NCBI GenBank assembly: GCA_019454185.1
Contig: CP075368.1
Coordinates: 1,899,649 to 1,963,648 of the forward strand
DNA: 64,000 nt
From: Phycisphaeraceae bacterium
GTDB lineage: Bacteria; Planctomycetota; Phycisphaerae; Phycisphaerales; UBA1924
Direction of reading: 5' to 3'
This document shows positions 7,598 through 40,347 of the stretch, in pieces (position 1 is the stretch's first letter; each line of letters begins with the position of its first letter). The position numbers and the translations under genes were made by a program. The notes under the pieces were generated by a model, which had not been told where the DNA came from, ran no database searches, and saw nothing but the letters and a program-made list of their open reading frames with translations.

Positions 7598-7622
7598 CGG
7601 GGATCCAACTTCAAACTAGGAG

Positions 7623-7656
7623 GACTCACCACAGAGGCACAGAGAACACAGAGAAA
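7623..7656 (+). repeat. 34-nt (CACAGAG)x3 repeat, copy 2
   Basis: GACTCACCACAGAGGCACAGAGAACACAGAGAAA. Lies 25 nt upstream of the zinc-ribbon gene ATG. Confidence 0.9.
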
Positions 7657-7738
7657 GACAGTGAAGAAGCGGGGATAGGGTGTCGGAAGGCGACAGCCGT
7701 TGGGCTCGTAGGTGAAGGAATGAGAGTACAGGACTCGG

Positions 7739-8398
7739 TCACGCGTTCGGGGCGACGGCGACCTTTGCTGGACGGATGACGCGCTCGCCGGTGAGCATCG
7801 TCAGGAGGAAGCCGGGCTGGAAGGTTGAGACGATGCGGCCGGGCTCGATGCCATCTGCCGTCTGCTGGATCACGGCCTCATGGCGTCCGGGCTGGAACTC
7901 ATCGTTGGGCTGGGGGTGGATGAGCGTGACGCCGTTTCGAGAGAGGATCTTGAGCATCTCTTCGCGGATGACGCGGACGCCGCCGATGAGCTGCTCGGCG
8001 GTGACCTTGGCGGGGTCCTGACCGATGGCGAGGTCGAAGTGATCGAGGACCGCTGCGACATCCGAGACGATTCGTGAGACGCCGTCTGCCTTGGCCTGCT
8101 GCTCGTTCTGGAGGGCGCGGCGCTGGCTGTTCTGGTAATCGGCGACGGTGCGGAGGAGTTTGTTCTTGGTCTCGGTGAGCTCGGATTCCAGTATGTTGAC
8201 ACGCGCGATCGCCTCCTCCGCGCTCTCGGGTCCCCACTCGCTTTTCCAGGTGTCGGACGCGCGCTCGCCGGACGGCGCGGGATCGCTTGCGCTGCCCCAG
8301 TCGCCGGTGTCGGAGATGTCGTGCTCGCGGGGGGGCACCGATTGATCGCCCGGCGTGCCTTGGTTGTGTCTGTCTTTCTTGTTCATCGCATCACCCAT
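7739..8398 (-). CDS. grpE: nucleotide exchange factor GrpE
   Basis: Coiled-coil N-terminal part followed by GrpE core motifs (FDLAIGQ..., HEAVIQQ..., RPAKVAV). Sits directly downstream of dnaJ. Confidence 0.9.
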   Translation of the reverse strand: MGDAMNKKDRHNQGTPGDQSVPPREHDISDTGDWGSASDPAPSGERASDTWKSEWGPESAEEAIARVNILESELTETKNKLLRTVADYQNSQRRALQNEQQAKADGVSRIVSDVAAVLDHFDLAIGQDPAKVTAEQLIGGVRVIREEMLKILSRNGVTLIHPQPNDEFQPGRHEAVIQQTADGIEPGRIVSTFQPGFLLTMLTGERVIRPAKVAVAPNA

Positions 8399-8426: not shown

Positions 8427-9596
8427 TCAGGGATTCAGAAAGTCTTTGACGCGTTTCCAGAATCCTTCGCTCTCAGGAAGCACATCGTGGTTCTCTAGTG
8501 CGGCGAGTTTGCGGAGCAGCCCCTCTTGCTCGCTCGTGAGTTTGCGGGGCACTTCGATCTTGACGCCGACGAGAAGATCGCCGCGGCGGGCGGTGCGGAG
8601 GTTGGGAAGCCCCTTGCCCTCGATGCGGAAGACGGTGCCGTAGGCGGTTGCCTTGGGGACTCGGAGGGTGTGCTCACCGTCGAGCGTGGGGATCTTGATG
8701 TCGGCGCCGAGCGCGGCCTGGGTGTAGGTGATGGGCATCTCGAGCGTGAGGTTGTCGGCCTGCTCGGGGTCGCGCTGGAAGAGCGAGTGCTCGTCGATGC
8801 GGATCACCACGTGGAGATCGCCGCGGACGCCCTGGCCGTCGGCGGAGACCTCCTGCGGCGGGGGTTCGCCCTCGCCCGCGACACGGACGGCCATGCCCTC
8901 CTGCACGCCGGCGGGGATCTTGACGGAGAGTTTGCGCTTCTTGGGGACGCGCCCCTTGCCCCGGCAGCCGTCGCAGAGGTCTTTGATGATGCTGCCTCGG
9001 CCTTTGCAGTTGGGGCATGCGACGACCATGCGGAACATGCCGCCGAGGCCGGTCTGCTGGACCTTTCCGTGGCCGCCGCAGGTGGGGCACTTGTCGGGCT
9101 TTGATCCGGGCTTTGCGCCGGAGCCGGTGCACTTTTCGCAGACGTCCATGCGTGTGAACTCGACATCGCGTTCGCAGCCGCTGAGGACTTCTTCGAGTGA
9201 GATCTCGACTTCGGTCTCGAGGTCGTATCCCCGTGCTGGGCCGCGGCGCTGCTGGCCTCCCCCCCCCCTGCCGCCCATGCCGCCGCCCCCGAAGATGTCG
9301 TTGAACATCGAGAAGATGTCGTCGACGTTCATGCGGGTGAAGTCGTGGGTGGCGGGGCCGCCCCGGCCTCGGAGTCCTTCGTGGCCGTACTGGTCGTAGA
9401 TCTTGCGCTTGGCGTCGTCTGAGAGGACCTCGTAGGCCTCGGCGGCTTCCTTGAACTTGGCCTCGGCCTCGGCATCGCCGGGGTTGCGGTCGGGGTGGTA
9501 CTTCATCGCCAGGCGGCGATAGGAGCGCTTGATCTCCTCGCCGTCGGCGGTGCGCTCAACGGAGAGGATCTCGTAATAGTCACGGGTGGTGGGCAT
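8427..9596 (-). CDS. dnaJ: molecular chaperone DnaJ
   Basis: J domain (DYYEILSV...[16 protein letters not shown]), a Gly-rich linker, and four CxxCxGxG zinc-finger repeats. Confidence 0.97.
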
Positions 9597-9676
9597 GGGG
9601 GATCCGGGGAGGCAAAGACGAAGATTGAAGACTCACCACAGAGGCACAGAGGACACAGAGAAAGGCAAAGAACGGG
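9564..9676 (+). repeat. direct duplication, copy A (dnaJ 5' end + leader + 34-nt repeat)
   Basis: ~113 nt matching 9738..9849 with about 7 differences. Includes the first 33 nt of dnaJ. Confidence 0.85.
9630..9663 (+). repeat. 34-nt (CACAGAG)x3 repeat, copy 3
   Basis: GACTCACCACAGAGGCACAGAGGACACAGAGAAA. Lies 33 nt upstream of the dnaJ ATG. Confidence 0.9.
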
Positions 9677-9770: not shown

Positions 9771-9849
9771 GGGGGATCCGGGAAGGCAAAGACGAAGAAA
9801 GAAGACTCACCACAGAGGCACAGAGGACACAGAGAAATGCAAAAACGGG
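9738..9849 (+). repeat. direct duplication, copy B
   Basis: See copy A. The two copies are offset by 174 nt. Confidence 0.85.
9804..9837 (+). repeat. 34-nt (CACAGAG)x3 repeat, copy 4
   Basis: Identical to copy 3. Lies 21 nt beyond the GxxExxY stop codon. Confidence 0.9.
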
Positions 9850-9858
9850 ATAGAAAGA

Positions 9859-10260
9859 CTACAACACCATTCGCTTGATGCCGTCACGGAGATAGGGAGA
9901 GTTGAAGTTGAGGAGAAGCCCCTTCGACTTTCTTGCGAGCCGGAGATACGTGAGTAACTGGGCCTCGTGGACGGGCAAGAGCTTCTCAACAGACTTCACT
10001 TCGACAACGACTGCACCACAAACGAGCAGATCGATTCGGTATCCACATTCGAGCTGAAGGCCTCGGTACTCGAGCGGCACTGCGACCTCGGACTCGACCG
10101 CGATCCCGCGATGGCCGAGTTCGTGCCTGAGGCACGCCTGGTACGCGGATTCGAGCAACCCAGGTCCGAGGGCCTCGTGAACGGTGATCGCAGCCCCGAT
10201 GATCTCTCCTGTCAGAGAGTCGGTGGAATCCGGCGCGAGATGGATGCCACGGTCCTGCAT
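9859..10260 (-). CDS. GxxExxY protein (PD-(D/E)XK nuclease-like superfamily)
   Basis: IIGAAITVHEALGPGLLESAYQACLRHEL contains the G-L-L-E-S-A-Y signature, and the ~133-aa size is typical. Start moved to the ATG at 10260 because upstream ORF codons translate the inverted repeat. Confidence 0.85.
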   Translation of the reverse strand: MQDRGIHLAPDSTDSLTGEIIGAAITVHEALGPGLLESAYQACLRHELGHRGIAVESEVAVPLEYRGLQLECGYRIDLLVCGAVVVEVKSVEKLLPVHEAQLLTYLRLARKSKGLLLNFNSPYLRDGIKRMVL

Positions 10261-10268
10261 CAATGGCT

Positions 10269-10302
10269 CTTCTCGGTGCTCTCTGTGCCTCTGTGGTGAG
10301 TC
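10269..10302 (-). repeat. 34-nt (CACAGAG)x3 repeat, copy 5 (inverted)
   Basis: The reverse complement reads GACTCACCACAGAGGCACAGAGAGCACCGAGAAG. Lies 8 nt upstream of the GxxExxY ATG. Confidence 0.85.
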
Positions 10303-10400
10303 TTTGTCTTGGTCGGTTTTCGAATCGTCCCACGCGTGTGTCCACGGGTGGGGCGGGGTGGTTTGGTTCATCCGCTCGCTCGCGCTCGCGGTTCGGTCAA

Positions 10401-10420
10401 CCCCGAGCTTGCGCTCGGGG
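10401..10420 (-). terminator. GC-rich hairpin downstream of groEL (copy 1)
   Basis: CCCCGAGC-ttgc-GCTCGGGG, a perfect 8-bp stem, 21 nt after the groEL stop. Only a short U run follows on the minus strand. Confidence 0.45.
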
Positions 10421-10441: not shown

Positions 10442-12055
10442 TCAGGAGACGGATCCGGTCGTTGCTTCCTGCTCGTCCTTGAGTTCGGTCATCATGACGT
10501 CGGTGGTGAGCATGAGGCCCGCGACGCTCGCGGCATTGACCAGCGCGCTCTTCGCAACGAGGGCGGGATCGATGATCCCGGCTTTCACGAGGTCGCCGTA
10601 CTCGCCGGTCGCGGCGTTGAAGCCAAAGGAGCCCTTGCCGTCCTTGACCTTCTCGACCACGATGTCGCCGTCGAAGCCGGCGTTGACAGCGATCTGCCAT
10701 GCGCACTTCTCGACAGCGGCGATCACGATGTCGAAGCCGAGCTTCTCATCGCCCTTGGCCTTCTTCTGGGCGGCGGTCATGGCTTCCTGAGCGCGGATGA
10801 TGGCGACGCCGCCACCGGGGACGTACCCCTCCTTGGCAGCGGCGCGGGTCGCGTGGAGCGCGTCGTCGACGAGGTCCTTCTTGGCCTTCATAGCGACTTC
10901 GCTGGAGCCGCCGACGCGGATCATGGCGACGCCGCCGGTGAGCTTGGCGTGACGCTCCATCAGCTTCTCCTTGTCGTAGTCGCTGGTGGACTTGTCGTGC
11001 TGGGCCTTGATCTGTGAGGCGCGGGCGCTGATCTCGGCTTTCTTGCCCGCGCCCTCGATGATCGTGGTGTCGTCCTTGGTGATGACGACCTTCTTGGCGC
11101 GGCCGAGCTCGGAGATCTCGATGGATTCGAGCGAGCGGCCGAGATCTTCGGCGAAGAAGGTGCCGCCGGTGAGGACGGCGATGTCGCCGAGCATGGCCTT
11201 GCGGCGGTCGCCGAAGCCGGGGGCCTTGACGGCGCAGATCTTGAGGACGCCGCGGAGGCGGTTGACGACGAGGGCGGCGAGTGCCTCGTTCTCGACTTCT
11301 TCGGCGATGACGAGGATGGGCTTGCCGCTGGTTGCGACCTTGTTGAGGAAGGGGAGGAAGTCGGTGAGATTGCTGATCTTCTTCTCGTGGATGAGGATGT
11401 AGCAGTCTTCGAGCACGCACTCGGCGGTCTTGGGGTTGGTCATGAAGTAGGGGGAGAGGTAGCCCTTGTCGAACTGCATGCCCTCGACGTAATCGAGCGT
11501 GGTTTCGGCGGACTTGCCCTCTTCCACTTCGACGACGCCGTCGGGGCCGACCTTTGAGATGGCTTCGGCGATGAGTTCGCCGACTTCGGCGTCGTGGTTG
11601 GCAGAGACGGAAGCGATCTTCTTGTAGTCGTCCTTGCCCTTGCACTTGACGGCCATGCCGGTGATGGCCTCGGCGGCGGCCTCGGCGGCCTTGTTGATTC
11701 CCCGCTGGACCTGCACGGCGTTGGCGCCGGTGGCGATGACGCGGAGGCCTTCGGTGAAGATGGCCTGGGCAAGGACGGTGGCGGCGGTGGTGCCGTCGCC
11801 GGCCTTGTCGGCGGTCTTCTTGGCGACCTCATTGACGAGCTTGGCGCCCATGGAGGCGAAGGGCTCGGGGAGGGAGATCTCCTTGGAGACGGAGACGCCG
11901 TCCTTGGTGACGTGAGGGCCGCCGTAGGACTTCTCGATGACGACGTGGCGGCCGCTCGGGCCCATCGTGCACTTGACGGCCTCGGCCAGTTGGTCAACGC
12001 CCTTCTTCATCTCGAGGAGTGCGGCGTCTTTGTACATGATCTGCTTCTTGGACAT
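10442..12055 (-). CDS. groEL: chaperonin GroEL (paralog 1, tail ...ELKDEQEATTGSVS)
   Basis: MSKKQIMYKD...AGDGTTAATVLAQAI... is full-length Cpn60. It has no GGM-repeat tail. Confidence 0.97.
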   Translation of the reverse strand: MSKKQIMYKDAALLEMKKGVDQLAEAVKCTMGPSGRHVVIEKSYGGPHVTKDGVSVSKEISLPEPFASMGAKLVNEVAKKTADKAGDGTTAATVLAQAIFTEGLRVIATGANAVQVQRGINKAAEAAAEAITGMAVKCKGKDDYKKIASVSANHDAEVGELIAEAISKVGPDGVVEVEEGKSAETTLDYVEGMQFDKGYLSPYFMTNPKTAECVLEDCYILIHEKKISNLTDFLPFLNKVATSGKPILVIAEEVENEALAALVVNRLRGVLKICAVKAPGFGDRRKAMLGDIAVLTGGTFFAEDLGRSLESIEISELGRAKKVVITKDDTTIIEGAGKKAEISARASQIKAQHDKSTSDYDKEKLMERHAKLTGGVAMIRVGGSSEVAMKAKKDLVDDALHATRAAAKEGYVPGGGVAIIRAQEAMTAAQKKAKGDEKLGFDIVIAAVEKCAWQIAVNAGFDGDIVVEKVKDGKGSFGFNAATGEYGDLVKAGIIDPALVAKSALVNAASVAGLMLTTDVMMTELKDEQEATTGSVS

Positions 12056-12142
12056 GTGTTCACCTCTTTGGATCGTGCGTGTTGGTTGTCGGGCGGCGTG
12101 TGGATGCGGTGCCGCGTGTGTGTGTCGTGATTTCGGTGCGGC

Positions 12143-14044
12143 TCACCATGAACCGTCCTTCTCGTATCCGAGGGCGATGAGTTGGTCGCCAGCGGCTTGC
12201 TTGAACCATTTCTTTGCATCGTCGGTGAAGTAGTTCTGCCAGTCGCCCACTTGCCCCTTGCGATAGAAGCCGCCGGGGGTTTCGGTCTCGAATCCGGGCG
12301 CGGAGCGGTTGGCGGCACTGACTGGGGCGGCTTCGGCGGGATCGAGCCCGAGGAAGCGGTAGAGGGCGGCGCGCTCGGACTCGACGTCGGCGCGCATGCG
12401 TTCGTAACGGAGTTCGTGGAAGGGCGTGCGCCCGCGCTCGCGGATGACTGCGGCGACGGCGAGGTCGTGCCGCATCTGCTGTGCCCATTGGCGGGCGAGC
12501 GTGCGGACCCACTGTTCTTCGGCGAGCAGCCGGTGCGGCTCGCGTTTGAAGAGGTCCGGGTCGGCGAGGAAGGCCTGCTGGAGGGCGAGCATGCGCCCGG
12601 CGTAGAGCGGGTCTTTGAGCATCGTGCCGCCGGAGGCGAGTTCGTGGAAGGTGCGGCTGATGAGGACGTCGCGTCCGTCGCGAAGGAGGAGGATGTGGGG
12701 CGCACCGGGGACGAGGACGCGGAGGGCGCGGGGCGTCTTGTCGCCGAGCCATGTTGCGTCGGGCTTGTGGGTGCTGATCGCGCCCATGATGCGGCGGACG
12801 GCGTCGCGTGCGGCGCGCTCGGCCTCGGTGCGGACGGGCTCGTGATGGGCGACGTGCCAAGGCCAGCGGGTCAATTGGTCGAAGGCGTTTCGGAGGGCCT
12901 CGAAGCGGAACTCACCCTGCACGAAGGTGCGCGGATGGAGGTTCATGACGGCGACGGTCCAGGTGGTGCCGGAGCGGGGATGGCCGCAGACGAAGAAGAG
13001 ATTGCGGGCGATGCCGTCGATGGTGATGGTGTGTTCGGGCGCGTCGCCGGGAAGCGGCGCGGGGTCGGCGTGGGCCTCGATGAGGGCGGGATCGTGATGG
13101 GTGTGCGGGTGGGTGTGCGGCGCGTGGATGGCGGGTTGCGCAGGCGCGGCGGTTGGCGCGACCGAGGGTGCGACCTCGCTGATCCACAGATCGTTTGAGG
13201 CGTAGCCAGCGGCAGTGAGCGCGGCACCGGCCTCGTCGTGGAAGGCGAGCGCGTTCTCGCGCGTGAAGAATCGACGCCAAGAGCCGGGCGCGACGTCGTG
13301 GGCCTCGGACGGCTCTGCGGCGCGGGGCGCGAGGGTCTGCACCCCAAGGAGAGAACAGAGGGCGCGGACCGAATCGCCGGAGGTCGCGACGTCCTCGAAT
13401 CGGACGACGAGGGTGCGAGAGCCAGCATCGGCGAGGCGCTTGAGCGCGCCGAGATCGGACTGGATGCGGGTCGCCCAGGTGCGAGCGAGTTGGCGGAGCC
13501 AGGGTTCGAGCCAGAGGAGGCGATGGGGACGATCGCGGAGGAGGTTCGGATCGCGCCGGAGTTCCTCGCGAAGGTGCTCGAGCCGGGCACGGTAGCGCTG
13601 GTCGCTGAAGAGGGAGTCGGGGCCGGCGTGGGCACTGGTCAACTGGCGGAGGGCCTCGGCGATGACGACGTCGCGCCCATCGCGGACGAGGTAGATGTAT
13701 GTCCCGCCGGGAAGAATCTCGTCGACGGGCTCCTGGGCGATGTCGGCGATCCAGCGGATGGCGCGCGTGTCGGTGATCGCGGCGTGCATCGTGGCGCGGA
13801 CGAGTTCGTTGGTCGAGCGCAGGAGCGTTTCGGCGCCGGGGGCGTCGAGCGTGCTCGCGGCGCGGTGCGCGGCGCTGACAACGGGACCGAGGCCGAACGT
13901 GCCGGTGGTGACGATCCCGGTGCGGGCGAGCGCCGCGGCCAGGGTTTCCAGACCGCTGGAGGGGTGAGCACGGAGGAAGAGTTCGCGCACGGAGAGGGGC
14001 GCATCGACGCGAACGGGAGTTGAGGCGCGGAGCTGGGTGGTCAT
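12143..14044 (-). CDS. two-domain sulfotransferase (degenerate N-domain + canonical PAPS-type C-domain)
   Basis: C-domain motifs: FFVCGHPRSGTTW, LLLRDGRDVLIS, FYRKGQVGDWQNYFT. N-domain: HPSSGLETL replaces the PSB loop, VRDGRDVV is kept, and the C motif is degenerate (GSWRRFFT). The ATG at 14044 overlaps the upstream stop (ATGA). Confidence 0.8.
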   Translation of the reverse strand: MTTQLRASTPVRVDAPLSVRELFLRAHPSSGLETLAAALARTGIVTTGTFGLGPVVSAAHRAASTLDAPGAETLLRSTNELVRATMHAAITDTRAIRWIADIAQEPVDEILPGGTYIYLVRDGRDVVIAEALRQLTSAHAGPDSLFSDQRYRARLEHLREELRRDPNLLRDRPHRLLWLEPWLRQLARTWATRIQSDLGALKRLADAGSRTLVVRFEDVATSGDSVRALCSLLGVQTLAPRAAEPSEAHDVAPGSWRRFFTRENALAFHDEAGAALTAAGYASNDLWISEVAPSVAPTAAPAQPAIHAPHTHPHTHHDPALIEAHADPAPLPGDAPEHTITIDGIARNLFFVCGHPRSGTTWTVAVMNLHPRTFVQGEFRFEALRNAFDQLTRWPWHVAHHEPVRTEAERAARDAVRRIMGAISTHKPDATWLGDKTPRALRVLVPGAPHILLLRDGRDVLISRTFHELASGGTMLKDPLYAGRMLALQQAFLADPDLFKREPHRLLAEEQWVRTLARQWAQQMRHDLAVAAVIRERGRTPFHELRYERMRADVESERAALYRFLGLDPAEAAPVSAANRSAPGFETETPGGFYRKGQVGDWQNYFTDDAKKWFKQAAGDQLIALGYEKDGSW

Positions 14045-15135
14045 GGGTGACCTCCGCGACTCTTTGCAGCTCTGGTATCCCACTCGCTTCCCTGAGATTC
14101 GTAGCCGAGGGCGACGAGCATCTCACCGGCTTCTTCCATGAACCAGCGGCGGGCGTCTTTGGTGAAGTATGTCTCCCACTCGCCGCGTTTGCCGCTGCGG
14201 TAGAAGGAGGTCGCGCCCTGTCCCTTGCCGCCGAAGCCGGGCTTTGCGAGCGGATTGGCGTCGATGGGTGCGGCCTCGTCGGGGTTGACGCCGAGGAACT
14301 CGTACATGCGACGGCGCTGGGCCTCGGGATCGGCGTGGACGGCTTCGTAGCGGACTTCGAGGACCTTGCCGTCGAGCTCGGCGCGGGCGTAGCGACCCTT
14401 GGCGAACTCGTCGCGCCGGGCGCGGGTGGCCCAGACTCGGGCGACGTGTCGGACCCAGGTCTCTGAAGAGAGCAGCGCCTCAGGGTGCTTCTCGAAGTGC
14501 TTCGGGTCGGCCTTGAGGAGGTCAAGGAGCGCGAGCATGTCGCGCTTCCAGGGCTCGCGCGTGATGAGTTCGTTGTCGATGCGGAGCTGGTGGAAGGTCC
14601 AACTGACGCAGACATCGCGCCCGTCGCGGATGAGGTGGATGGTCGGCGCGCCCGGGAGCATCTGGAAGACTTCGCGGGGCGTCATGTCGCCGATGACATC
14701 GGCTTGCGGGCGGAGATGGACCGTTGTCAGCATGCACTCGCGGACGAGCCGCTGCATGTTGCGGCGGGCGATCTCGCGCATGGGGTCGTAGTGGCCGAGG
14801 TGCCAATCGTGCTTCTCGAACTGCCAGAGGCCCCCATACAGCATCTCGAAGTGGTACTCGCCCTGGATGTTGATCCGGGGGTGGAGGTTGAGGAGCGACT
14901 GCATCCAGTGGGTGCCGGAGCGGGGGTGGCCGCAGAGGAAGAAGAAGGAGCGTTCGACGCCCTGATAGACCTGGTGGAATCCGTCGCGGGAGTGGCCTTC
15001 GGCGAGGCCATTGGTTGGGGTGTTGGAGAGGGATTTGGGCTCGATGCTGAGCGAGAGAGCGGCATCGGCGCGCGGTGCGTCGGCCGGCGCTTCGCTGCCG
15101 GAGAGACGCTTCAGGATGCCGCGCACCGATGCCAC
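14041..15135 (-). CDS. sulfotransferase (PAPS-dependent type)
   Basis: FFFLCGHPRSGTHW, HLIRDGRDVCVS, FYRSGKRGEWETYFT. ORF 14041..15615 must start after groES; I chose the GTG at 15135, preceded by GAGG. The start is uncertain. Confidence 0.8.
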   Translation of the reverse strand: MASVRGILKRLSGSEAPADAPRADAALSLSIEPKSLSNTPTNGLAEGHSRDGFHQVYQGVERSFFFLCGHPRSGTHWMQSLLNLHPRINIQGEYHFEMLYGGLWQFEKHDWHLGHYDPMREIARRNMQRLVRECMLTTVHLRPQADVIGDMTPREVFQMLPGAPTIHLIRDGRDVCVSWTFHQLRIDNELITREPWKRDMLALLDLLKADPKHFEKHPEALLSSETWVRHVARVWATRARRDEFAKGRYARAELDGKVLEVRYEAVHADPEAQRRRMYEFLGVNPDEAAPIDANPLAKPGFGGKGQGATSFYRSGKRGEWETYFTKDARRWFMEEAGEMLVALGYESQGSEWDTRAAKSRGGHP

Positions 15136-15163: not shown

Positions 15164-15451
15164 TCAGCCGATGACGCCGAGGAGTTCGTTCTCGCGGATG
15201 ATGAGGTGCTTGTCGCCCTTGATCTCGACCTCGGTGCCGGCGTACTTGCCGAAGACGACGGTGTCGCCGACCTTGACGGAGAGGTGGGCGCGCTTGCCGT
15301 TCTCCAAGAGCTTTCCTGGGCCTGTGGAGACGACCTTGCCCTGCATGGGCTTCTCCTTGGCGGACTCGGGGAGGTAGAGGCCGGAGGCGGTCTTGGTCTC
15401 GGCTTCGAGGGGCTTGACGAGGACGCGATCTTCGAGGGGTTTGACGGCCAT
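15164..15451 (-). CDS. groES: co-chaperonin GroES
   Basis: MAVKPLEDRVLVKPLEAETKTASGLYLPESAKEKPMQGKVVSTGPG... Confidence 0.97.
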   Translation of the reverse strand: MAVKPLEDRVLVKPLEAETKTASGLYLPESAKEKPMQGKVVSTGPGKLLENGKRAHLSVKVGDTVVFGKYAGTEVEIKGDKHLIIRENELLGVIG

Positions 15452-15793
15452 TGGGGTTCTCCAGAACTCGTGCGGCGGTTGCCGCGTGTTGGTGCTTTGT
15501 GAATCTGACTTGCACCTGAGTGGGGTGCGGGGGTTATGGTCCAGTGACTTATCGTTTCGAGAGACAGCACCTGGCTGGCGCTCGTCTCTTCACTCTGCAT
15601 TCCTGTACTCTGCATGTCGGACAGAACGGTACATGGTTGTAAAGAAGGAGGCCGTGGAGGATGGCGAGGGTGCGGTCGAGCATGCGTGAATCATTCCTTC
15701 GGACGCCCGGTCTGCCGACCACTGCCTGACGAGCGGTCTGCGGCACGGCCGACCGGACACCGCTCTGGAGAGCGGTGCCACCAGGAACCGAGA

Positions 15794-17476
15794 TCAGTGC
15801 GCGTGGGCGTGGCCCGCGTGCTCGTCCTTCTTCTCGGGCTTTTCGGTGATGATGCAGTCGGCGGTCAGGAGGACCGTGGCGACGCTGGCTGCGTTCTGGA
15901 GCGCGAGGCGATCGACCTTTGCGGGGGTGATGACACCCATGTCGACGAGGTCGCCGTACTCCTCGGTGAGGGCGTTGAAGCCGAAGTTGGCGGACTTGTT
16001 CTCGGCGACCTTCGCGACGACGACGGATCCCTTGACGCCCGCGTTGTCGGCGATCGTGCGGAGGGGGACGCCGAGGGCCTGATAGACCACGTCGAGTCCT
16101 GCGGCAAAGTCGTACTTCACGCGGCCGACTTCGTCGGCGGAGAGGTCCTCTGCCTGAGCGGCCTTGCCGAAGACGGCCTTGTGCTCTTTGAGCTTCTCGA
16201 TCGCGGCTCGGGCGCGGATGAAGGAGGTGCCGCCACCGGGGACGATACCCTCGGCGAGCGCGGCGCGGGTGGCGTGGAGGGCGTCTTCGACGCGGGCCTT
16301 CTTCTCCTTGAGTTCGGCCTCGGAGGCGGCGCCGACGTTGACCTGGGCGACGCCGCCGGCGAGCTTGGCGAGGCGTTCCTGGAGTTTCTCGCGGTCGTAG
16401 TCGCTGGTTGTGCGCTCGATCTCGGCGCGGATCTGGGCGATGCGTGCCTGGATGGACTTGCTGTCGCCCGCGCCCTCGATGATGGTGGTGTTGTCGGCGT
16501 CGATTTCGAGTTTCTTGGCCATGCCGAGGTGCTTGATCTCGACCTTGTCGAGTTCGATGCCGAGGTCCTTCATGATGGCGGTCGCGCCGGTGAGGATCGC
16601 GATGTCTTCGAGCATGGCCTTGCGGCGGTCGCCGTAGCCGGGGGCCTTGACGGCGGCGACCTGGAGCGTGCCCCGGAGCTTGTTGATGACGAGCGTGCTC
16701 AGGGCTTCGCCGGCGATGTCCTCGGCGATGATGAGGAGGGGCTTCTTGGCCTGCATGACCTTTTCGAGCAGGGGGACGAGCTTGGAGACGGAGTCGATTT
16801 TGTCCTCGTGGATGAGGATGAGGCACTTGTCGAGTTCGACCTTCATGTCGTCGACGTTGGTGACGAAGTTGGGGGAGAGGAAGCCACGGTCGAACTGCAT
16901 GCCCTCGACGACGGTGACCTCGGTCTCGAGCGACTTGCCCTCTTCGACGGTGATGACGCCGTCCTTGCCGACGCGATCGAAGGCGTCTGCCATGATCTTG
17001 CCGACCTCGGCGTCGTTATTGGCGGAGATGGCGGCGACGTTCTGGATGTCGGCCTTGCCCTTGACGGGGGTGGAGAGATCGTCGATGGCCTTGGAGGCGG
17101 TCTCGACGGCCTTCTTCATGCCGCGGACGAGGGCGTTGGCGTCGACACCGGCGGCGATGTACTTGAGCCCCTCGCGGAAGAGCGCCTCGGCGAGGACGGT
17201 GGCGGTGGTGGTACCGTCGCCGGCGTCGTCGGAGGTCTTGCTGGCGGCCTGCTTGACGAGCATGGCTCCCATGTTCTCGGCCTTGTTGCGGAGTTCGATC
17301 TCCTCGGCGACGGTGACGCCGTCCTTGGTGACGGTGGGTCCGCCCCAGGACTTGTCGATGACGGCGTTGCGGCCACGGGGCCCGAGGGTGGCTTTCACGG
17401 CCTTGGCGAGTTTCTCGACTCCGGCAAGAAGTGCCTGACGTGCCTCGATATCGAACGTGAGTTCCTTGGATGCCAT
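15794..17476 (-). CDS. groEL: chaperonin GroEL (paralog 2, His-rich tail ...[13 protein letters not shown])
   Basis: [20 protein letters not shown]...[15 protein letters not shown]... Uses the ATG at 17476, preceded by GGAG. Confidence 0.97.
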
Positions 17477-17600: not shown

Positions 17601-17616
17601 GCAAGCAGAGTGCCAA
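17601..17616 (-). promoter_or_regulatory. candidate sigma-54 (-24/-12) promoter upstream of groEL paralog 2
   Basis: The minus strand reads TTGGCACtctgcTTGCc, an exact TGGCAC-N5-TTGC with canonical GG/GC spacing, 125 nt upstream of the groEL ATG in an intergenic region. Confidence 0.45.
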
Positions 17617-23114: not shown

Positions 23115-24380
23115 TCAGACCTCGAGGAGGATGCGTTCGGGATTCTCGAGCTGGTCCTTGATCCTGACGAGGAACCGGACGGCTCCCTCGCCGTCGACCA
23201 TGCGGTGGTCGTAGGAGAGGGCGAGGTACATCATCGGTCGGATGGCGACCTGGCCGGGCTTGTCCGGATCCTCGACGGCGCGGTTCTTGGTCGCGTGCAT
23301 CCCGAGGATCGCCGACTGGGGCGGATTGAGGATGGGCGTTGACATGAGTGAACCGAAGACGCCGCCGTTGGTGATCGTGAACGTGCCGCCCTGCATCTCT
23401 TCGAGCGTGAGTTTGCCGTCGCGTGCCTTTGTCGCGAGTTCCTTGATGCCGCTCTCGACCTCTGCGAAGGACATGCGTTCGGCGTTTCTCAGTACGGGAA
23501 CGACAAGGCCCTTGGGCGTTGAGACTGCGATCGCGATGTCGGCGTAGGCGTGCTTCTGGACGGCGGGATGCCCCTCGGCATCCTTGACCATGTACGCGTT
23601 GACCATCGGGAACTCGACGAGGGCGTTGGCGGCGGCCTTGACGAAGAAGGACATGAACCCGAGCCCGATGCCGTGCTTCTTCTCGAAGGACTCTTTGTAC
23701 TTTGCCCGGAGCGCCATGATGCGCGTCATGTCCACTTCGTTGAAGGTGGTGAGCATGGCGGCGGTGTGCTGGGCCTCGACGAGGCGCTGGGCGATGCGCT
23801 GGCGGATCGGCGGCATGCGCTCGATCGTGGTCGCGCGAGGGCCTGACGGAGCGGGCGCGGGGGCTTTGGTTGGCGTAGAGGCAGCAGCAGCCGGCGCGGG
23901 GCTCTTGCCCTTGACGAAATCGATGACGTCCTGCTCGCGGACACGGTGGCCGGCGCCTGTGCCGGAGACTTTGGAGAGGTCTACACCGTGCTCGGCGGCG
24001 ACCTTCTTCGCGAGCGGTGTGGCGCGGATCTCGCCGTTTGCGGCCTGATCCGAGGTCTTGACGGTGTCGACTGCGGGGGGCGCGAGCACACTGGTCGCGG
24101 ACCCGGACTCGCTGGCAACAGAGGCAGCAGACGCGGCGGGTGAGCCGCCGGCTTCCATGCGTCCGACGACAGCGCCGACGTTGACGGTGTCGCCCTCTTT
24201 CGCGGCGTGGCGGAGGATGCCGTCGGCGGGGGCGACGATCTCCATGTTGACCTTGTCGGTTTCGAGTTCGAGGACCGCTTCGTCGCGTTTGACGAACGCG
24301 CCGTCGGCCTTGAGCCATTTGGAGATAACACCGGAGGCGACCGACTCGCCAACAGTCGGGATGAGGATGTCCGTCGACAT
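23115..24380 (-). CDS. sucB: 2-oxoglutarate dehydrogenase E2, dihydrolipoyllysine-residue succinyltransferase
   Basis: Lipoyl domain ([12 protein letters not shown]), a peripheral subunit-binding domain, and a catalytic domain with the DHRMVDG motif. Confidence 0.93.
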
Positions 24381-24414
24381 GAGGATGCTCTCGTGGAGGG
24401 TGTGCGGTCGGTGA

Positions 24415-27345
24415 TCAGCGTGATGCAGCGGCCTTGGCCTTGCCGGGCTTTGCGGCTTCCGTTGCGCGGGGCGCGGTATCCGTCGTTCCGGCGGCGGGGC
24501 CGACTGCGGCGGCGATGATGTCCTCTTGCTCGTGCTTGTGAACGGTCTTCGACCCGACGGCGGGGCTGGCGGCGGCGCGGCGACCGATGTATGTGAGCTC
24601 GATGCCGAGACGCGAGCGGACGATGTCGCTGATGAAGAGGAACGCGCCGGTGTTCCGCGGCTCTTCCTGGCACCAGACGTGCTCCCTGACGTTGGGATAC
24701 TTGGCGATGATGTCTTTGGCGAGTTGCTCGTGGAACGGATAGAGCTGCTCGACGCGGACGATGGCGACGTCTGTGCGAGCGATCGCGTCGCGTCGCTCCA
24801 TGAGTTCGTGCCCGATCTTTCCGGAGCAGAAGACGATGCGATTGACTTTGGACCTGTCTGACCCGCGCGAGACGAACGCGGGATCGTCCATGATCTCCCA
24901 GAATCTGCCGGAGACCAGCTCGTCGATCGTGCTTGTCTCTTTACGGAGGTGCCCCTTTGGGGTTGCGACGATCAGGGGTTTGCGGAAGGAGCGTTTGACC
25001 TGCCTTCTCAGGAGGTGGAAGGTCTGGGCTCCTGTCGAGGGGACGACGACCTGCATGTTGTGCTCGGCACAGAGTTGCAGGAAGCGTTCGATCCTGCAGG
25101 ATGAGTGCTCGGGGCCCGCGCCTTCGTACCCGTGCGGGAGGAGCATGACGAGCCCGGACCAGCGTTCCCACTTGGTTTCCGCGCTCGCGAGGAACTGATC
25201 GATGATGACCTGCGCACCGTTGACGAAGTCGCCGAACTGGGCTTCCCAGATGACGAGAACGTTGGGATCGGCGAGGGAGTAGCCGTACTCGAAGCCGAGG
25301 ACGGACATCTCGGAGAGCGGGCTGTCGTAGACCTTGAATCCGGCTTGGCGGGGGCGACCGTCGGCTCCGGGGCTCCCGACCGGATGATCGGTGGAGGGCT
25401 CGCCCAGTTCGCGCATGCCGTTGAGCGGCTCGTACGGCGCGCCTGTGACGGCGTCTCGCAGGACAGCGTGACGCTGCGAGAAGGTGCCCCGGCGACAGTC
25501 CTGCCCGGAGAGCCGGACGTGGTTGCCTTCGAGGAGGAGCGTGCCGAATGCGAGCATTTCTGCGTCGGCGTGGGAGATTGCGCCGGCCCGCCAGAGCTCG
25601 GCCCGGGACTTGAGAAGGGCCTTGAGCTTGGGGTTGACGTTGAAGCCGTCGGGGACGCGGCCGAGCGCCTCGCTCACCTCGCGGATCGTTTCGATGCTGA
25701 CATTGGTCGGGACGCTCTCGAAATTGAACTTCTGGGAGAGCCCGCGCCAGCGGTCGCTGCCGGGGTCGATGTTGGGATCGAAGGGCTTACGCTTGGCAGC
25801 GGCCTGTGCGTCCTCGAGCGACTGAGAGAGACGCCCGTTGATGACATCGATATCGGACTGCTGGATGACGCCCGCGGCCTGGAGGCGCTTGGCGTATGAG
25901 GTCAGGGTGCTGTCCTTGGCCTTGATGAGCGCGGCGAGGATGGGTTGGGTGTACGACTGCTCGTCCTGCTCGTTGTGGCCGTACTTGCGGAAGCACCACA
26001 TGTCGATCATGACGTCTTTGCGGAACGCCAGGCGGTACTCCAGCGCGATCTCGGCGACCTTGAAGACCGCGTCGGGGTCTTCGGCGTTCACGTGCAGGAT
26101 CGGGGCGTCGATCATCTTGGCGACGTCGGTGCAGTAGCGGCTGGAGCGAGAGTCCTCCGGGACCGTTGTGAAGCCGATCATGTTGTTGACGACGACGTGG
26201 ATTGTGCCGCCGGTGGTGTAGCCCTCCAACTGGGAGAAGTTGAGGCACTCGGCCACGACGCCCTGGCCCGCGATGGCGGCATCGCCGTGGATGAGGACAG
26301 GGACGACGCGTCTGCGCTCGACATCGTTCCGGAGGCGCTGCTTGGCGCGAGTGCGGCCCTCGACGATCGGGTTCACGCTTTCAAGGTGGCTGGGGTTGCT
26401 GGCCATGGCGAGACGGAGGGTCTTGCCGGACCTGAAGGTGCGGACGCCGGAGTAGCCGCGGTGGTATTTCACGTCGCCCGAGGCGTCTGCGAAGCCATCC
26501 TGGTAGCTGTCCTCGAACTCGGTGAAGATCTGCTCGTAGGTCTTGCCGAGGATGTTGTTGAGGACGTTGAGCCGCCCGCGGTGGGCCATGCCCATGACGA
26601 CTTCTTGAACGCCGTTGTCTGCGGCGTGTTCGAGGAGACGGTCGAGGAGGGGGATGAGCGACTCTGCGCCTTCGAGACTGAATCGCTTCTCGCCGGGATA
26701 GCGCTTTGCGAGGAAGGTTTCGAAGGATTCGGCGCGGGTGAGTTGTTCGAGAACGTGTGCCTGCTCGCCTCGGGTGAGTTTGATGCCGCCTCCGTTGCGG
26801 GAGGCCCTGGCGATGAGCCAGTCGCGTTCCTCGCGGTTCTGAACGTGCATGAACTCACAGCCGATGGAGCGGCAGTACGTGGTCTCGAGGCGATCGATGA
26901 TGTCGCGCAGGCGGATGGAACCGGCGACCCCGACAATCGAGCCGTCGACGTCTCGGTCGAGGTCGGCATCGGAGAGACCCCAGTGGGCGGGCGCGAGCGC
27001 GGCGGGGCGTTCCCGTGGACGGTCGAATGGATCGAGGGCGGCGCAAAGGTGGCCGAGTTCCTGGTAGGCGTGGACGAGGTGCCAGACTGCGTGCTCGAAG
27101 CTGCCGACTGCGGCGGAACCCGAGGAGTTGGTCGTGCTTCGCGGTCCGCCACCGGCCAGCGCGAGATCGAAGCCCTGGAAGAACGCCCGCAGGTCGGGCG
27201 TTACCGAGTTTGGATCCTGCCTATACCGATCGAACTCGGCCTCCAGGAAGTCGGCGTTCCAGCCGTTCACGGATGGCGTAAGTGATTGCAACTGCTGCGC
27301 TTGGGTTGACCCAGCCATGATGAACCTCGACGGCGAGCGAGCCAC
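24415..27345 (-). CDS. sucA: 2-oxoglutarate dehydrogenase E1 component
   Basis: ~970 aa with E1o motifs ([39 protein letters not shown]). Directly upstream of sucB. Start could be the ATG at 27318. Confidence 0.95.
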
Positions 27346-28482: not shown

Positions 28483-29016
28483 TCATTTTGGCGCTCTGCC
28501 GCCCACGCGGAGTTCGAGCGGCTCTCGGGAAACGACTCTGGTTCCATCGGCGAGTGTGATCTCGCAAGAGAGGCGTGCGGCCTGGGATGGGATTCGGTCT
28601 GTGCCGACGGCGTTGAGGTTGAGTTCGAAGCCGTAGGCCGGGCCGGGCTGTGTGGGGAAGACGGCGCGACTGGTCTCGCGCGGCGCGAACGCCCAGACCC
28701 CGAGCGACTGTCCCTGTTCGCCGACCATACGGAACTGGAAGGTGGCGTCGACGGTCATGGGAAGGGCGAAGCGATTGGTATCGCCAAAGACATAGACGAT
28801 CACGCGGACGGTGTCCACGAAGCCGTTGAGATCTCGGTCCTCGAGCGGCTCGTTGGCGACCAAGACTCGCTCTGGCTTGAGGTCGGAGGGTTGGGTGGGG
28901 AACTGAGATTGGGTCTGCCTGCGTGGGCGCGAAGAATCCGATGTGGCGCAGCCGGTAGCGAGCCCGATCGAGAGCAGGGCAGCGAGAAGGATGGCGAGTC
29001 GGGCGACGGGGATCAT
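28483..29016 (-). CDS. small lipoprotein translationally coupled to the secretin (pilotin candidate)
   Basis: MIPVARLAILLAALLSIGLATGC lipobox. Its ATG overlaps the secretin stop (ATGA at 29013-29016). Confidence 0.7.
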   Translation of the reverse strand: MIPVARLAILLAALLSIGLATGCATSDSSRPRRQTQSQFPTQPSDLKPERVLVANEPLEDRDLNGFVDTVRVIVYVFGDTNRFALPMTVDATFQFRMVGEQGQSLGVWAFAPRETSRAVFPTQPGPAYGFELNLNAVGTDRIPSQAARLSCEITLADGTRVVSREPLELRVGGRAPK

Positions 29017-32000
29017 CGCGGGCGCTCCTCTTTGCGTCCGACGGTCCGGACGCGGTCGCCCTGAGCAGCCGAGGATGAGCCGGGAGCGGCGCCGGACGGG
29101 TTGCTCTCCCGCATTTCGAGCGGGGGCAGAGTGGTCGGAGGTGGGGAGCCATCGTGCATCTCGAGGGCGTCGCGGATCTGGGTGGGATTGGACATGCGTC
29201 CGATCTCGTGGCGTGTCCAGCGGCTCTGGAGATCGATGGAGCTTGGTGAATCGCCTGGCACGACCTTGGGCGTGAGGATGACGAGGAGTTCGGTCTTGAT
29301 GTTCTCGACCTGGGTCGAGCGGAAGGCGTTGCCGATGATGGGGATGTCTCCCAGCAGCGGGACCTTGGTGCGGCGATCTTCCTGGGTGTTCTGGATCAGG
29401 CCGCCTATGACGACCGTCTGTCCGTCCTTGACGGTGACGACGGTGTCGACCTTACGTGTGGTGATGATCGGGGCTTCGAAGTCCTCGGAGATCTGGGTGG
29501 TGCGCTGGCTGACGGAAGAGATCTCGGGGGCGATTTCGAGCCGCACGAACCCGTCGGCGCTGATGGATGGCGTGACGTTGAGGATGATTCCGACATCTCG
29601 ACGTTCGACGTCGGACCGTGTGTTGCCGTTGTCCAATCGTTCGACACCGGTGACGATGGCGATGTCTTCACCGACCTGGATGAGGGCCCGCTCGTTGTTA
29701 TTGACCGTGACCTGGGGTCTGCTCAGCACTTCGAGCTTGCCCTGGACTTCGAGCGCACGGATCAGGACGCTGAAGTCGTTGCTCGAAATGGAGAGGTTCG
29801 CAACGCCGAGAGCGGTCGCAACGCCCGCGCCCGCGCCGAGCGCGCCGAACTGCCACATGTTGCCGCCGAACGGCCCTGCGGTCGAGTCCATGCCCCACTG
29901 GCGTGAGGCATCGAGCGTGACCTCGGCGAGGAGGACCTGGATCATGACCTGGGGCGGAGCGGCGTCGAGTTCCTCGATGATGGACTGGACGATCTCGGCG
30001 TAGCGAGGCGAGGTCGAGACGACGAGCTTGTTGCTTTTGCCGTCGCCGACGACCGTGACTTCCTGCTCGAGCTGGCGTGTCAGCGAGCCGGTCTGAGACG
30101 GGCCGAGTGTGGAGCGGATCTTGGTTGATTCTTCCTGGAAGTATCTGGCGAGGGTGCGTTCGACCTCGTCGGCCTTTGCGTAGCGAAGTTTGTAGACGAG
30201 TTGGAGGCGCTCGGTTGCTTCGATCCCGTCGAGTTCATCGACGACGGAGCGGACCATCTCAAGATACTCGTCGGTTCCTGAGACGAGGAGCGTGTTGGTC
30301 CGGGCGTCGATCGTGATCGAGAGCTCCTTGCGAGTGTCGGGAATGGGTGTGAGCGTCGTGTTGTTGAACGCGGGCGCGGCGGGATCGCTCTCGCCCGGGG
30401 ATCTCAGATCGGTCTGCGTCGGGACGAGAACGAGACGATCGCCCTGCTGCTGGAGACTGAACAGATCACGGAGGACATCGGCCATGGCGCGGGCGTCGGC
30501 GTTCTTCAGACGGAACCACTCGACACGGCGTGAGCCGGCGGAGGTTGTGTCGAGATCGGCGACGATAGCGGCGATGACTTCCATCACGGCGGGCGGCGCG
30601 GCGACCATCAGCGAGTTGGTGCGCAGATCGGGCGTCATACGGACCTGGTCTCGGATCGCGCCGTCGACAGCGGCCTCCGTGGCCTCGCGGCCGGTGCGTC
30701 CTTCGATCTGGTCGGCGATCTGATCACGGAGGAAACGGATGCGTGTGGCCTGGGTTGCGCCGACGCCTCGGCCGCCGCCGAGCGTGCGGCCGGCGAGTAC
30801 GTTCTCGAGCAGGTTCACGACTTCGAGCGCGTTGGCGGTGCGGAGCTCGAGGCGTCTGACATCCTGAACGGCGGTGACCTCGGCCGACTCCATTCGCTCG
30901 ATGATTCCACGGATGGCGTTGACATCGGATTCAGTGCCGCTGACCACGAGGGCGTTCAGTTGAGCATTTGGAACGACGCTGACGGCGCGTTGGCCACGTC
31001 GGGCGATCTCTTTCTGGACGTAGAGTGCGTTGACGGTGTCGGCGACATCGGCGGCTCTCATCTGTCCGAGCGGGATGAGGGTTGTGCGTTCGGCGCCTGC
31101 GACGGCAGCGGCATCGGCCGTGAGGGAGACGATGAGGTCTTTCACCACGGCGAGGTTCTCGTCGCTGGAGGCGACGATCAGGAGTGAGTTTGCGGCGTCG
31201 GGCTCGATGGAGAACGCGTCCTGCGGCTGCTCGATGGATCCGGCGCGGCGAGCGGCTTCGAGGCGTTCACGCATCAGTCGCTGCACGCGGGGCGCGAGCG
31301 ATGCGACATCGACGCCGGGCACCGGGACGACGTGGAGCCCGACCGCTTCGTTGGTCTCCGACGTGTCGAGGGTCTTGAGGAGGGCTTCAAGGATCGAGAA
31401 GCTGCTCACGCTGGTCGAAGCGATGAGGGAGTTGGTGCGGATATCGGCGGTGACGACGAGGGCGTCTTCGGGGCGCATCGCGCCGGTCGCCTGGCGCTGG
31501 CGGAAGATCTCGGAGGCCATGCTCGCGACACGGGCCGCGTTGGCGTGGTTGAGCGGGAAGAAGCGGACCGAGTTTGCTGCGGCGGCCGGTTCGACGTCGA
31601 GCTGCGCGACGAGTTCGGTGACGATGCGGAGGTTGGAAGCGGAGCCGATCACAACGAGCGCGTTCATCGGGAGCGCGGGCTGGATCACGAGCCCGGTCAT
31701 GGGAGCGAAGAGGTCGCCCTGGACCGAGGCGCGCGGGTCGGCGGGGTCGCGGCCAGAGTCAACGACGCGGAGGCGGGCGATCTGACGCTGGATGCCGAGC
31801 GCCTCGGGTGTGCCGGCGAGGCCCTGGACGAGCGTCCGCCGAAGCAGATCGGCCATGGCGTTGGCATCCGCGTGCTTGAGCTGGAGGATGGTTGGCTCGA
31901 TCCAACTGGTGGCCTCGGTGCTGTCGAGATCTCGGATGAGGACTTCGACGAGCGCGACGGCCTCTTCGCGGCCGGCAACGACGAGTGTGTTGGTTCGATC

Positions 32001-40292: not shown

Positions 40293-40347
40293 AGAACCCG
40301 CTCCTTCCGTGTGAGCGGTCGATTGTCCGACCACCCGCACAGTCTAC

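Follow-up and report, generated by a model that had tools for sequence, protein, structure and literature searches.

Why are groES and groEL, whose linkage is among the most stable of any bacterial gene pair, held apart by ~3 kb of non-chaperone enzyme genes in a bacterium of the family Phycisphaeraceae? The locus lies in a stretch of 64,000 nucleotides of this genome (contig CP075368.1, positions 1,899,649 to 1,963,648; hereafter the window). Open reading frames (ORFs) and their translations at 7.7-17.6 kb of the window give, on the minus strand, the string groEL2, groES, ST1, ST2, groEL1, a PD-(D/E)XK gene, dnaJ and grpE, in which ST1 and ST2 encode sulfotransferases (STs). We suggest, with moderate confidence, that ST1 and ST2 form an accessory cassette of enzymes dependent on 3'-phosphoadenosine 5'-phosphosulfate (PAPS), which was inserted long ago between groES and groEL1 and is transcribed together with the chaperonin genes. 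The ST-split layout is conserved in part of the order Phycisphaerales and is apparently undescribed in the literature searched: among papers on sulfotransferases with groES/groEL, on Phycisphaerae and on planctomycete heat shock, we found no description of the arrangement.

Direct reading of the sequence bears out the order and the gaps that an earlier note on this DNA had given. groES and ST1 are separated by 28 nt, ST1 and ST2 share the ATGA at 14044-14041, and ST2 and groEL1 are separated by 87 nt. The groEL2-groES spacer is 342 nt long. A GGAG-like ribosome-binding site stands ahead of each start. The GTG start of ST1 is backed by orthologues beginning MASVRGILKRL and the ATG start of ST2 by orthologues beginning MTTQLR. 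Pfam confirms the Cpn10 and Cpn60 families, and both GroEL copies are NCBIfam equivalogs. The exact ST2 sequence has no record in the contig index. The same note had called the codon style of the two ST genes native, and this agrees with the GC content of third codon positions (GC3), which is 0.85 in ST1, 0.84 in the N-terminal half of ST2 and 0.85 in the longest ST2 ORF (12143-14083), compared with 0.84-0.86 in dnaJ and grpE and 0.90 in the chaperonin genes. Since the values of the ST genes are close to those of dnaJ and grpE, the composition gives no sign of recent transfer.

Conservation and history of the layout

How old is the insertion? A scan of the GTDB species representatives, seeded with the ST family motif, returned 64 loci, almost all of them from metagenome-assembled genomes (MAGs) of Phycisphaerales/Phycisphaeraceae. 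In about 50 of the 64, tblastn with the window's proteins places groEL2, groES, one to four STs, groEL1, dnaJ and grpE on a single strand, and the identity of GroEL1 across these loci is 74-99%. Independent gene calls on one ENA contig (L145) give the same order, including DnaJ and GrpE as identified by Pfam. The layout is also seen in the genus Phycisphaera (L024), and JAHBWV01 and CP053450 are examples of complete genomes with the cassette. The ST-bearing MAGs may derive mainly from marine or saline samples, and the ST-less loci from freshwater. Despite the changes in copy number, at least one ST stands directly 5' of groEL1 in every ST-bearing locus that has groEL1 on the contig, and wherever the gap between the last ST and groEL1 can be measured (51 loci), it amounts to ~10-190 nt. 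A few genomes carry an extra ST between groEL2 and groES. A seeming fusion of ST and GroEL1 genes in L039 was ruled out by the stop codon present between them.

In the synteny survey that the earlier note had proposed, the same slot holds ST genes in about 50 species-level genomes of the order, though not universally. The case in which the arrangement would be unique to this strain fails on the same distribution, and a recent horizontal insertion peculiar to the strain has next to no chance of being correct. The GC content over the ST genes is slightly raised (0.69-0.71 vs 0.62-0.67), which is the point in favour of such an event. However, the ST and GroEL1 clades are congruent, GC3 is like that of dnaJ and grpE, and a repeat search of the locus found no repeats flanking the cassette.

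The further history is seen in the trees. When 126 ST domains are placed in a neighbour-joining tree, the subfamilies hold their array position and recur across GroEL1 clades, which argues for vertical inheritance from an early, already duplicated insertion. As these loci had been found by searching for the ST itself, a second scan was seeded on GroES. In the GroEL1 tree a 20-locus outgroup is wholly ST-less, and STs occur throughout the ingroup, its basal branches included. At least four ST-less clades are nested among the ST-bearing lineages of the ingroup and thus point to loss. One early insertion followed by repeated loss would be the simplest reading of this pattern.

The two sulfotransferases and their acceptor

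Both proteins lie above the curated Pfam cut-offs (27 bits for Sulfotransfer_3, PF13469; 22 bits for Sulfotransfer_1, PF00685), so that profile hidden Markov models (HMMs) support their classification as sulfotransferases. ST1 scores 67.3 bits (3e-18) with Sulfotransfer_3 and 61.8 bits (9e-17) with Sulfotransfer_1; ST2 scores 76.6 bits (4e-21) and 64.7 bits (1e-17), respectively, within residues 350-618 only. The motifs listed earlier are also there, namely PRSGTHW and PRSGTTW, three copies of RDGRDV, and YRSGKRGEWETYFT and YRKGQVGDWQNYFT.

ST1 consists of an N-terminal basic amphipathic helix, a low-complexity region (residues 1-50) and a catalytic domain (residues 55-350), and its AlphaFold model has a mean predicted local distance difference test (pLDDT) of 82. 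Many members of the family start with such a short basic amphipathic helix, of the M..L.RL.LR type, and the STs may be membrane-peripheral. No signal peptide is apparent in the sequences, as judged by eye without a predictor. Across 23 homologues, in ST1 numbering, G69, H70, S73, G74, T75, E93, R170, D171, R173, D174, S178, R313 and G315 are invariant and R72, G318, D319 and W320 almost invariant. The corresponding family motifs, invariant or nearly so, are GHPRSGT.W, NLHP followed by GE[FY]HFE, GDxTP, RDGRDV..S and R.G..GDW..Y.

The earlier note counted two sulfotransferase genes, and both exist; what it overlooked is that ST2 is a fusion of two sulfotransferase-fold domains. The N-terminal ~320 residues of ST2 have no match in a Pfam search and are 29% identical to ST1 (E = 4e-22), so that the region holds three ST domains, one of them degenerate. 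The loop that binds the 5'-phosphosulfate (5'-PSB loop, P-[KR]-[ST]-G-T-T/x) reads GHPRSGTHW in ST1, GHPRSGTTW in the C-terminal domain of ST2 and HPSSGL in the N-terminal one, which thus lacks the Arg of the PAPS loop. This N-domain is also devoid of the catalytic Glu motif and of the C-terminal RxGxxGDW, and retains RDGRDV and a strongly conserved helical core. The degenerate pattern is identical in 16 fused ST2 orthologues with 61-92% identity, which argues for a conserved pseudo-enzyme fused to an enzyme, and not for a decaying gene. In the ST tree the N-domain is a long branch. In the C-domain the motifs are intact (GHPRSGTTW, GEFRFE, GDKTPR, RDGRDV, YRKGQVGDW). For ST2, AlphaFold gives a model in which each half is folded (pLDDT 75), with a predicted template-modelling score (pTM) of 0.51 that is too low to place the halves relative to each other. 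Judging from the motifs, ST1 and the C-domain of ST2 are most likely active PAPS-dependent enzymes, and the N-domain of ST2 would be a conserved non-catalytic partner.

To which class do these enzymes belong? Foldseek with the ST1 model against the PDB places tyrosylprotein sulfotransferases (TPSTs) best, with template-modelling (TM) scores of 0.56-0.65, compared with 0.37-0.52 for the cytosolic sulfotransferases of the SULT type; all top matches are sulfotransferases with probability 1.00. Profile comparison with the PDB likewise has TPST1, TPST2 and the tick TPST on top (E = 2e-12). In the profile alignment the invariant E93 pairs with the catalytic Glu (GEE) of TPST1 and TPST2, ~21 residues past the Arg of the PSB loop. 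The TPST alignment spans profile positions 22-214 only, so homology to TPSTs is not full-length, and the C-terminal third aligns with the cytosolic SULTs. The catalytic Lys158 of TPST2, in the NKDP segment, aligns with a position of the GDxTP motif, where ST1 has Met, the C-domain of ST2 Lys and most other homologues Arg. The catalytic His108 of SULT1 is placed between the PSB loop and the RDGRD motif. Among the 23 homologues there is no conserved His at that position, and the sole invariant His between R72 and R170 is H85, which belongs to the LHP motif and pairs with the LxxHP segment of the TPSTs. The likeness to cytosolic SULTs drawn in the earlier note thus holds for the C-terminal RxGxxGDW, but not for the catalytic half, which resembles TPSTs and glycan STs, has a Glu base and lacks the His. 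Hence, the family is a hybrid of a Glu-base N-terminal half and a SULT-like C-terminal PAPS motif.

The resemblance to TPSTs raises the question of whether GroES, GroEL1 or clients of the chaperonin are sulfated by the STs within the cytoplasm. The top ranks of TPSTs in profile and structure, with PRSGT, the Glu of LxxHP...GE and RDGR aligned, speak for it, as does the position of the genes between those of two partner proteins, with a similar wedge between E1beta and E2 described below. We nevertheless consider this very unlikely. The C-terminal RxGxxGDW aligns with SULTs that act on small molecules, the equivalent of Lys158 is Met in ST1, and GE[FY]HF with the Glu base is presumably also typical of glycan sulfotransferases such as the heparan-sulfate 3-OST. 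A set of one to four divergent paralogs is also easier to reconcile with a glycan sulfated at several sites than with one target protein. Finally, no Tyr column in GroES, GroEL1, GroEL2 or DnaJ separates the 52 ST-bearing from the 29 ST-less ingroup lineages. The Tyr of the GroES mobile loop (TASGLYLPES) was rejected as a sulfation target, being Phe in many ST-bearing loci.

Quite unlikely, too, is a role in proteostasis, in which a stress-coupled sulfated product would act as chemical chaperone or osmolyte, or the STs would sulfate clients or other proteins in the cytoplasm, with the ST2 pseudo-domain recruiting the substrate. Our best guess, tentative as it is, is that the acceptor is not the chaperonin but either a small molecule or a multiply sulfated glycan, lipid-linked or not, that is built at the cytoplasmic face. 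It is suggested by several divergent, regiospecific-looking paralog subfamilies in fixed order, by the cytoplasmic enzymes and by the exporter context of one paralog clade. In this clade, the nearest to ST1, the conserved gene string is M17 aminopeptidase, ST, ABC-2 permease (Wzm-like), ABC ATPase with Wzt_C and a 1001-aa double methyltransferase (L005 868-7620; L010 1602-6793; L038 7910-10155), which to us suggests the context of a sulfated, ABC-exported glycan.

Transcription of the cluster and the weight of other readings

The sole conserved promoter signal of the cluster is the sigma-54 site upstream of groEL2. Of 45 related loci, 41 have a sigma-54-like motif 5' of groEL2, in nearly all cases with zero or one mismatch and in a few with two; its distance to groEL2 is 77-205 nt in almost all of the 41 and 139 nt in the window. 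Sigma-54 control of Planctomycetota chaperone genes has been predicted (PMC12316311), in agreement with the groEL2 site here.

Other signals were sought as well. The promoter scan gives no sigma-70-like site in 7.5-18.5 kb, and a CIRCE/HrcA operator has no match in the window even at three mismatches. A sigma-32-like promoter 5' of groES (CTCGAAA-N15-CCATAAC) was discarded, since the closest relative (L002) does not share it; of 45 groES leaders, one has a sigma-32-like site, vs 0.7 in shuffles. No enriched motif was found upstream of groES or within the cassette. An element shared by the groES and groEL1 leaders, ACACGCGGCA, was dropped, the longest common substring having a mean of 6.5 within loci vs 6.6 between loci, and known RNA elements such as thermometers have no Rfam match.

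RNA folding shows both the groES-ST1 spacer (z = -0.9) and the ST2-groEL1 spacer (z = 0.0) to be unstructured. The hairpin after groEL1, which the earlier note had named as the first convincing terminator, is real and stable (z = -3.75), and there is none between groES and groEL1. A further hairpin follows the groEL2 stop within a larger stable structure (15700-15793, -48.6 kcal/mol, z = -2.3) and may be a terminator or a processing site. We infer co-transcription, and with it stress coupling, from the short unstructured spacers, the hairpins located only after groEL2 and groEL1, and the conserved sigma-54 site located only upstream of groEL2. Co-expression of the STs with the chaperonin, as the earlier note implied, is plausible on these signals. 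In many related loci a GC-rich hairpin of variable sequence is seen by eye at the same position of the groES leader as the small hairpin of the window; differing stem sequences at this position would hint at a conserved RNA structure, e.g., a processing or stability element.

Taken together, these observations lead us to propose the following course.

Step 1: In an ancestor of many Phycisphaerales the cassette would have entered the groES-groEL1 spacer of a chaperone supercluster, the backbone of which is groEL2, groES, groEL1, dnaJ and grpE. Vertical inheritance, duplication to one to four copies, fusion in the window's clade and repeated loss would have followed.

Step 2: ST1 and ST2 are most likely carried on one mRNA with groES and groEL1. 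The message could start in the groEL2-groES spacer, or it could be a read-through or processed product of the sigma-54 groEL2 transcript, and would end at the hairpin after groEL1.

Step 3: Translation of ST2 would be coupled to that of ST1 through the ATGA overlap, and the sulfotransferase output would rise and fall with chaperone expression.

Step 4: The active domains would work with the PRSGT of the 5'-PSB loop, a Glu93-type base as in TPSTs and heparan-sulfate sulfotransferases, the RDGRD...S that binds the 3'-phosphate (3'-PB) and the C-terminal RxGxxGDW.

A number of findings pull in the other direction, some against the common message and others against a functional tie to the chaperonins. 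Regarding the message, a second sigma-54-like site lies just 5' of groEL1 in nine loci of one subclade (L023, L040, L041, L045, L046, L048, L050, L053, L059), so the wiring may differ between lineages and groEL1 may be transcribed apart from the STs. High-GC bacteria also often use terminators and promoters that simple scans miss. The STs might then be transcription unit(s) of their own, with unrecognised promoters and terminators and no stress regulation, and their adjacency to the chaperonin genes would be positional. The site between the last ST and groEL1 in the subclade favours this, as do the lack of a recognised promoter type for groES itself and the poor knowledge of promoter types in the phylum. 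We regard separate units as unlikely in view of the 28-nt groES-ST1 gap, the 4-nt overlap of ST1 and ST2, the absence of a hairpin from either spacer and the common strand in about 50 genomes.

Regarding the functional tie, the GroES-seeded scan gave 72 loci in which the sequence past groES is long enough to be informative: an ST comes next in 8, groEL1 in 63 and a groEL2-like gene in one. The cassette is accessory in this sample and thus dispensable to the chaperone cluster. Most relatives with the same cluster are ST-less, and no Tyr co-varies with the STs. The spacers of the cluster hold unrelated genes as well. In ST-less relatives a gene for a four-helix-bundle, bAvd-like 23S_rRNA_IVP protein occupies the groES-groEL1 spacer (L068, L072, L073, L078, L081, L082, L083, L117, L127), a DedA/VTT membrane-protein gene stands between groEL2 and groES in some loci, and the PD-(D/E)XK gene between groEL1 and dnaJ is patchy, being present only in the window and some relatives. 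The spacers are therefore permissive insertion sites; the position of the STs could reflect this and not function, and position alone is no proof of function. ST relics were looked for in the 460-510-nt groES-groEL1 gaps that encode the 23S_rRNA_IVP protein, and the HMM search found none.

About ten ST paralogs lie outside the chaperone cluster in mixed contexts. Two MAGs have a paralog between 2-oxoacid dehydrogenase genes, in the order E1beta-ST-E2 (L058 7464-12310, where it overlaps the E1beta stop by 4 nt; L060 8869-13370), and in L051 (8414-11008) a paralog follows rpoN, the sigma-54 gene, at 28 nt on the same strand. The E1beta-ST-E2 order is a second case of an ST that splits the genes of partner subunits; the window's own 2-oxoglutarate dehydrogenase E1/E2 pair (23115-27345) is without an ST insert. 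To the same side of the balance belong the absence of a PAPS-synthesis gene, cysC included, from the 64-kb window, the ST and GroEL1 trees, which are neighbour-joining trees without support values, and the lean towards a glycan or small-molecule acceptor, which draws on paralog context.

These findings bear on neutral hitch-hiking, in which the spacers are permissive landing sites, the STs sit there only to be transcribed along with the cluster, and what they make is functionally unrelated to heat shock and protein folding. The 23S_rRNA_IVP, DedA/VTT and PD-(D/E)XK genes in the cluster spacers, the paralogs of the same family in other housekeeping operons, the several losses and the many relatives without STs all favour it. 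It is possible, if somewhat unlikely, because the STs have persisted while their lineages diverged deeply (GroEL1 identity down to 74%), with intact catalytic motifs, ordered subfamilies and a stable fusion, and because at least one ST stays immediately 5' of groEL1 wherever an ST-bearing locus has groEL1 on the contig. We thus keep the old, co-transcribed accessory cassette as our preferred reading, with a functional coupling to the stress response as plausible.

Table 1. Features of the chaperone cluster and its sulfotransferase cassette (window coordinates).
Feature	Position	Strand	Description	Basis
Sigma-54-type promoter TGGCACTCTGCTTGC	17601-17615	-	~125-140 nt 5' of groEL2 start	exact TGGCAC-N5-TTGC
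groEL2	15794-17476	-	560-aa chaperonin, His-rich C-terminal tail EHAGHAHAH	Pfam Cpn60_TCP1; NCBIfam GroEL equivalog, 746 bits
GC-rich hairpin after groEL2 stop	15756-15779	-	in larger stable structure, without U-tract	fold
Small hairpin GCGGCAACCGCCGC in groES leader	15472-15485	-	~20 nt 5' of start, just 5' of ribosome-binding site	fold
groES	15164-15451	-	95 aa	Pfam Cpn10, 7e-34
ST1	14041-15135	-	364-aa PAPS-type sulfotransferase	Pfam PF13469 and PF00685
ST2	12143-14044	-	two-domain sulfotransferase	Pfam; comparison with ST1
ST2 N-terminal pseudo-sulfotransferase domain	13175-13996	-	~residues 17-290	29% identity to ST1
ST2 C-terminal sulfotransferase domain, predicted active	12143-13039	-	~residues 336-633 and stop	Pfam; motifs
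ST2-groEL1 spacer	12056-12142	-	87 nt, ribosome-binding site AGAGG, without hairpin or promoter-like site	fold z = 0.0; promoter/terminator scan
groEL1	10442-12055	-	537-aa chaperonin without GGM tail, ends ELKDEQEATTGSVS	NCBIfam GroEL equivalog, 734 bits
Terminator-like hairpin CCCCGAGC-GCAA-GCTCGGGG after groEL1	10401-10420	-	-33 kcal/mol	z = -3.75
PD-(D/E)XK gene (PDDEXK_3, GxxExxY-type)	9859-10371	-	between groEL1 and dnaJ	Pfam PF13366, 1e-40
dnaJ	8427-9596	-	downstream end of conserved chaperone cluster	translation
grpE	7739-8398	-	downstream end of conserved chaperone cluster	translation

The two GroEL copies differ in their C-terminal tails, which are encoded at 15794-15830 for GroEL2 and at 10442-10480 for GroEL1. 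In none of the related loci (L001-L063) does GroEL1, the copy 3' of the STs, carry a Gly-Met tail; it ends with ELK(D/E)xxxxxG(A/S)V(S/A), and GroEL2 ends with a long GGM tail in most lineages and with the His-rich tail in the window's clade.

Around the PD-(D/E)XK gene and downstream of grpE lie four copies of a 68-115-nt repeat with the core GACTCACCACAGAGGCACAGAGGACACAGAGAA (7598-7665, 9605-9672, 9779-9846 and, inverted, 10270-10304); one 115-nt unit is tandemly duplicated with 93% identity. The annotated 5' end of the PD-(D/E)XK gene contains the inverted copy, so this gene probably starts at the internal MQDRGIHL. Elsewhere in the window a single ORF of 3775 aa (29013-40340, minus strand) encodes a giant secretin with 29 Secretin_N repeats and one C-terminal Secretin domain. 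Genes of a type II secretion system or pilus (T2SSE, T2SSF, T2SSG and N_methyl pseudopilins) are found a few kb past it, at 46.2-51.5 kb and 57.2-58.2 kb.

Significance and relation to known systems

A groES/groEL pair long split by predicted active ST genes is a natural experiment on the coupling of accessory chemistry to the stress response. A functional coupling would point to a sulfated metabolite or envelope glycan required by Phycisphaerales upon chaperone induction; the sulfated-glycan biology of this order is known mostly from its degradative side, via sulfatases. If there is no functional coupling, the locus still illustrates clearly how the spacers of housekeeping operons serve as landing pads for genes. 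Should the proteostasis reading be true, this would be the first sulfation step in a bacterial heat-shock operon and possibly the first bacterial system of cytoplasmic protein sulfation. Apart from this question, the STs make up a compact family of bacterial sulfotransferases with a Glu base, in which enzyme and pseudo-enzyme are naturally fused, and the groEL2 motif supports, from the comparative side, that sigma-54 controls chaperone genes in Planctomycetota.

As enzymes, the STs add new members to a superfamily that is already known, and their fusion of enzyme and pseudo-enzyme is unusual. They share with the TPSTs of the Sulfotransfer_3 family (human TPST1 and TPST2, and that of the tick) the PRSGT loop, LxxHP followed by Glu, a GDxTP that is like NKDP, and the RDGR of the 3'-PB motif. 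However, only the N-terminal half aligns with TPSTs, and the STs carry a SULT-type RxGxxGDWxxYF at the C-terminus; furthermore, TPSTs are type II membrane proteins of the Golgi lumen, whereas the STs are predicted to be cytoplasmic. With the cytosolic SULTs (SULT1/2, PF00685) they have in common the overall fold, the C-terminal 3'-phosphate motif of the RKGxxGDWKxxFT type and the character of soluble cytoplasmic enzymes. Unlike SULTs, in which the catalytic residue is His, they have an invariant Glu, and the structural similarity is lower. Among bacterial enzymes, rhizobial LpsS and KpsS and mycobacterial Stf0 are cytoplasmic PAPS-dependent sulfotransferases that act on envelope glycans or trehalose. 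The STs resemble them, going by general description, in being bacterial and of PAPS type, and one ST paralog clade lies near exporter genes of the Wzm/Wzt type. To our knowledge, none of the three is found inside a chaperonin operon.

As an arrangement, the placement of the STs varies the theme of the chaperone operon in a new way. Bacillus subtilis offers a precedent for co-transcription of heat-shock chaperone genes with that of a group-transfer enzyme, as its hrcA-grpE-dnaK-dnaJ operon carries the methyltransferase gene prmA. There, however, the enzyme is of another class, its gene lies downstream and does not split a partner pair, and the organism belongs to another phylum. The cluster is also similar to those of bacteria with multiple groEL genes, such as Myxococcus xanthus (PMC5406781), in that it has two groEL paralogs whose C-terminal tails differ. 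Like the canonical groES-groEL operon, the cluster has groES followed by its groEL partner on the same strand. However, unlike in that operon, 3 kb of ST genes intervene between the two, the cluster runs on into dnaJ and grpE, and its signal is of the sigma-54 type, being neither CIRCE/HrcA nor sigma-32.

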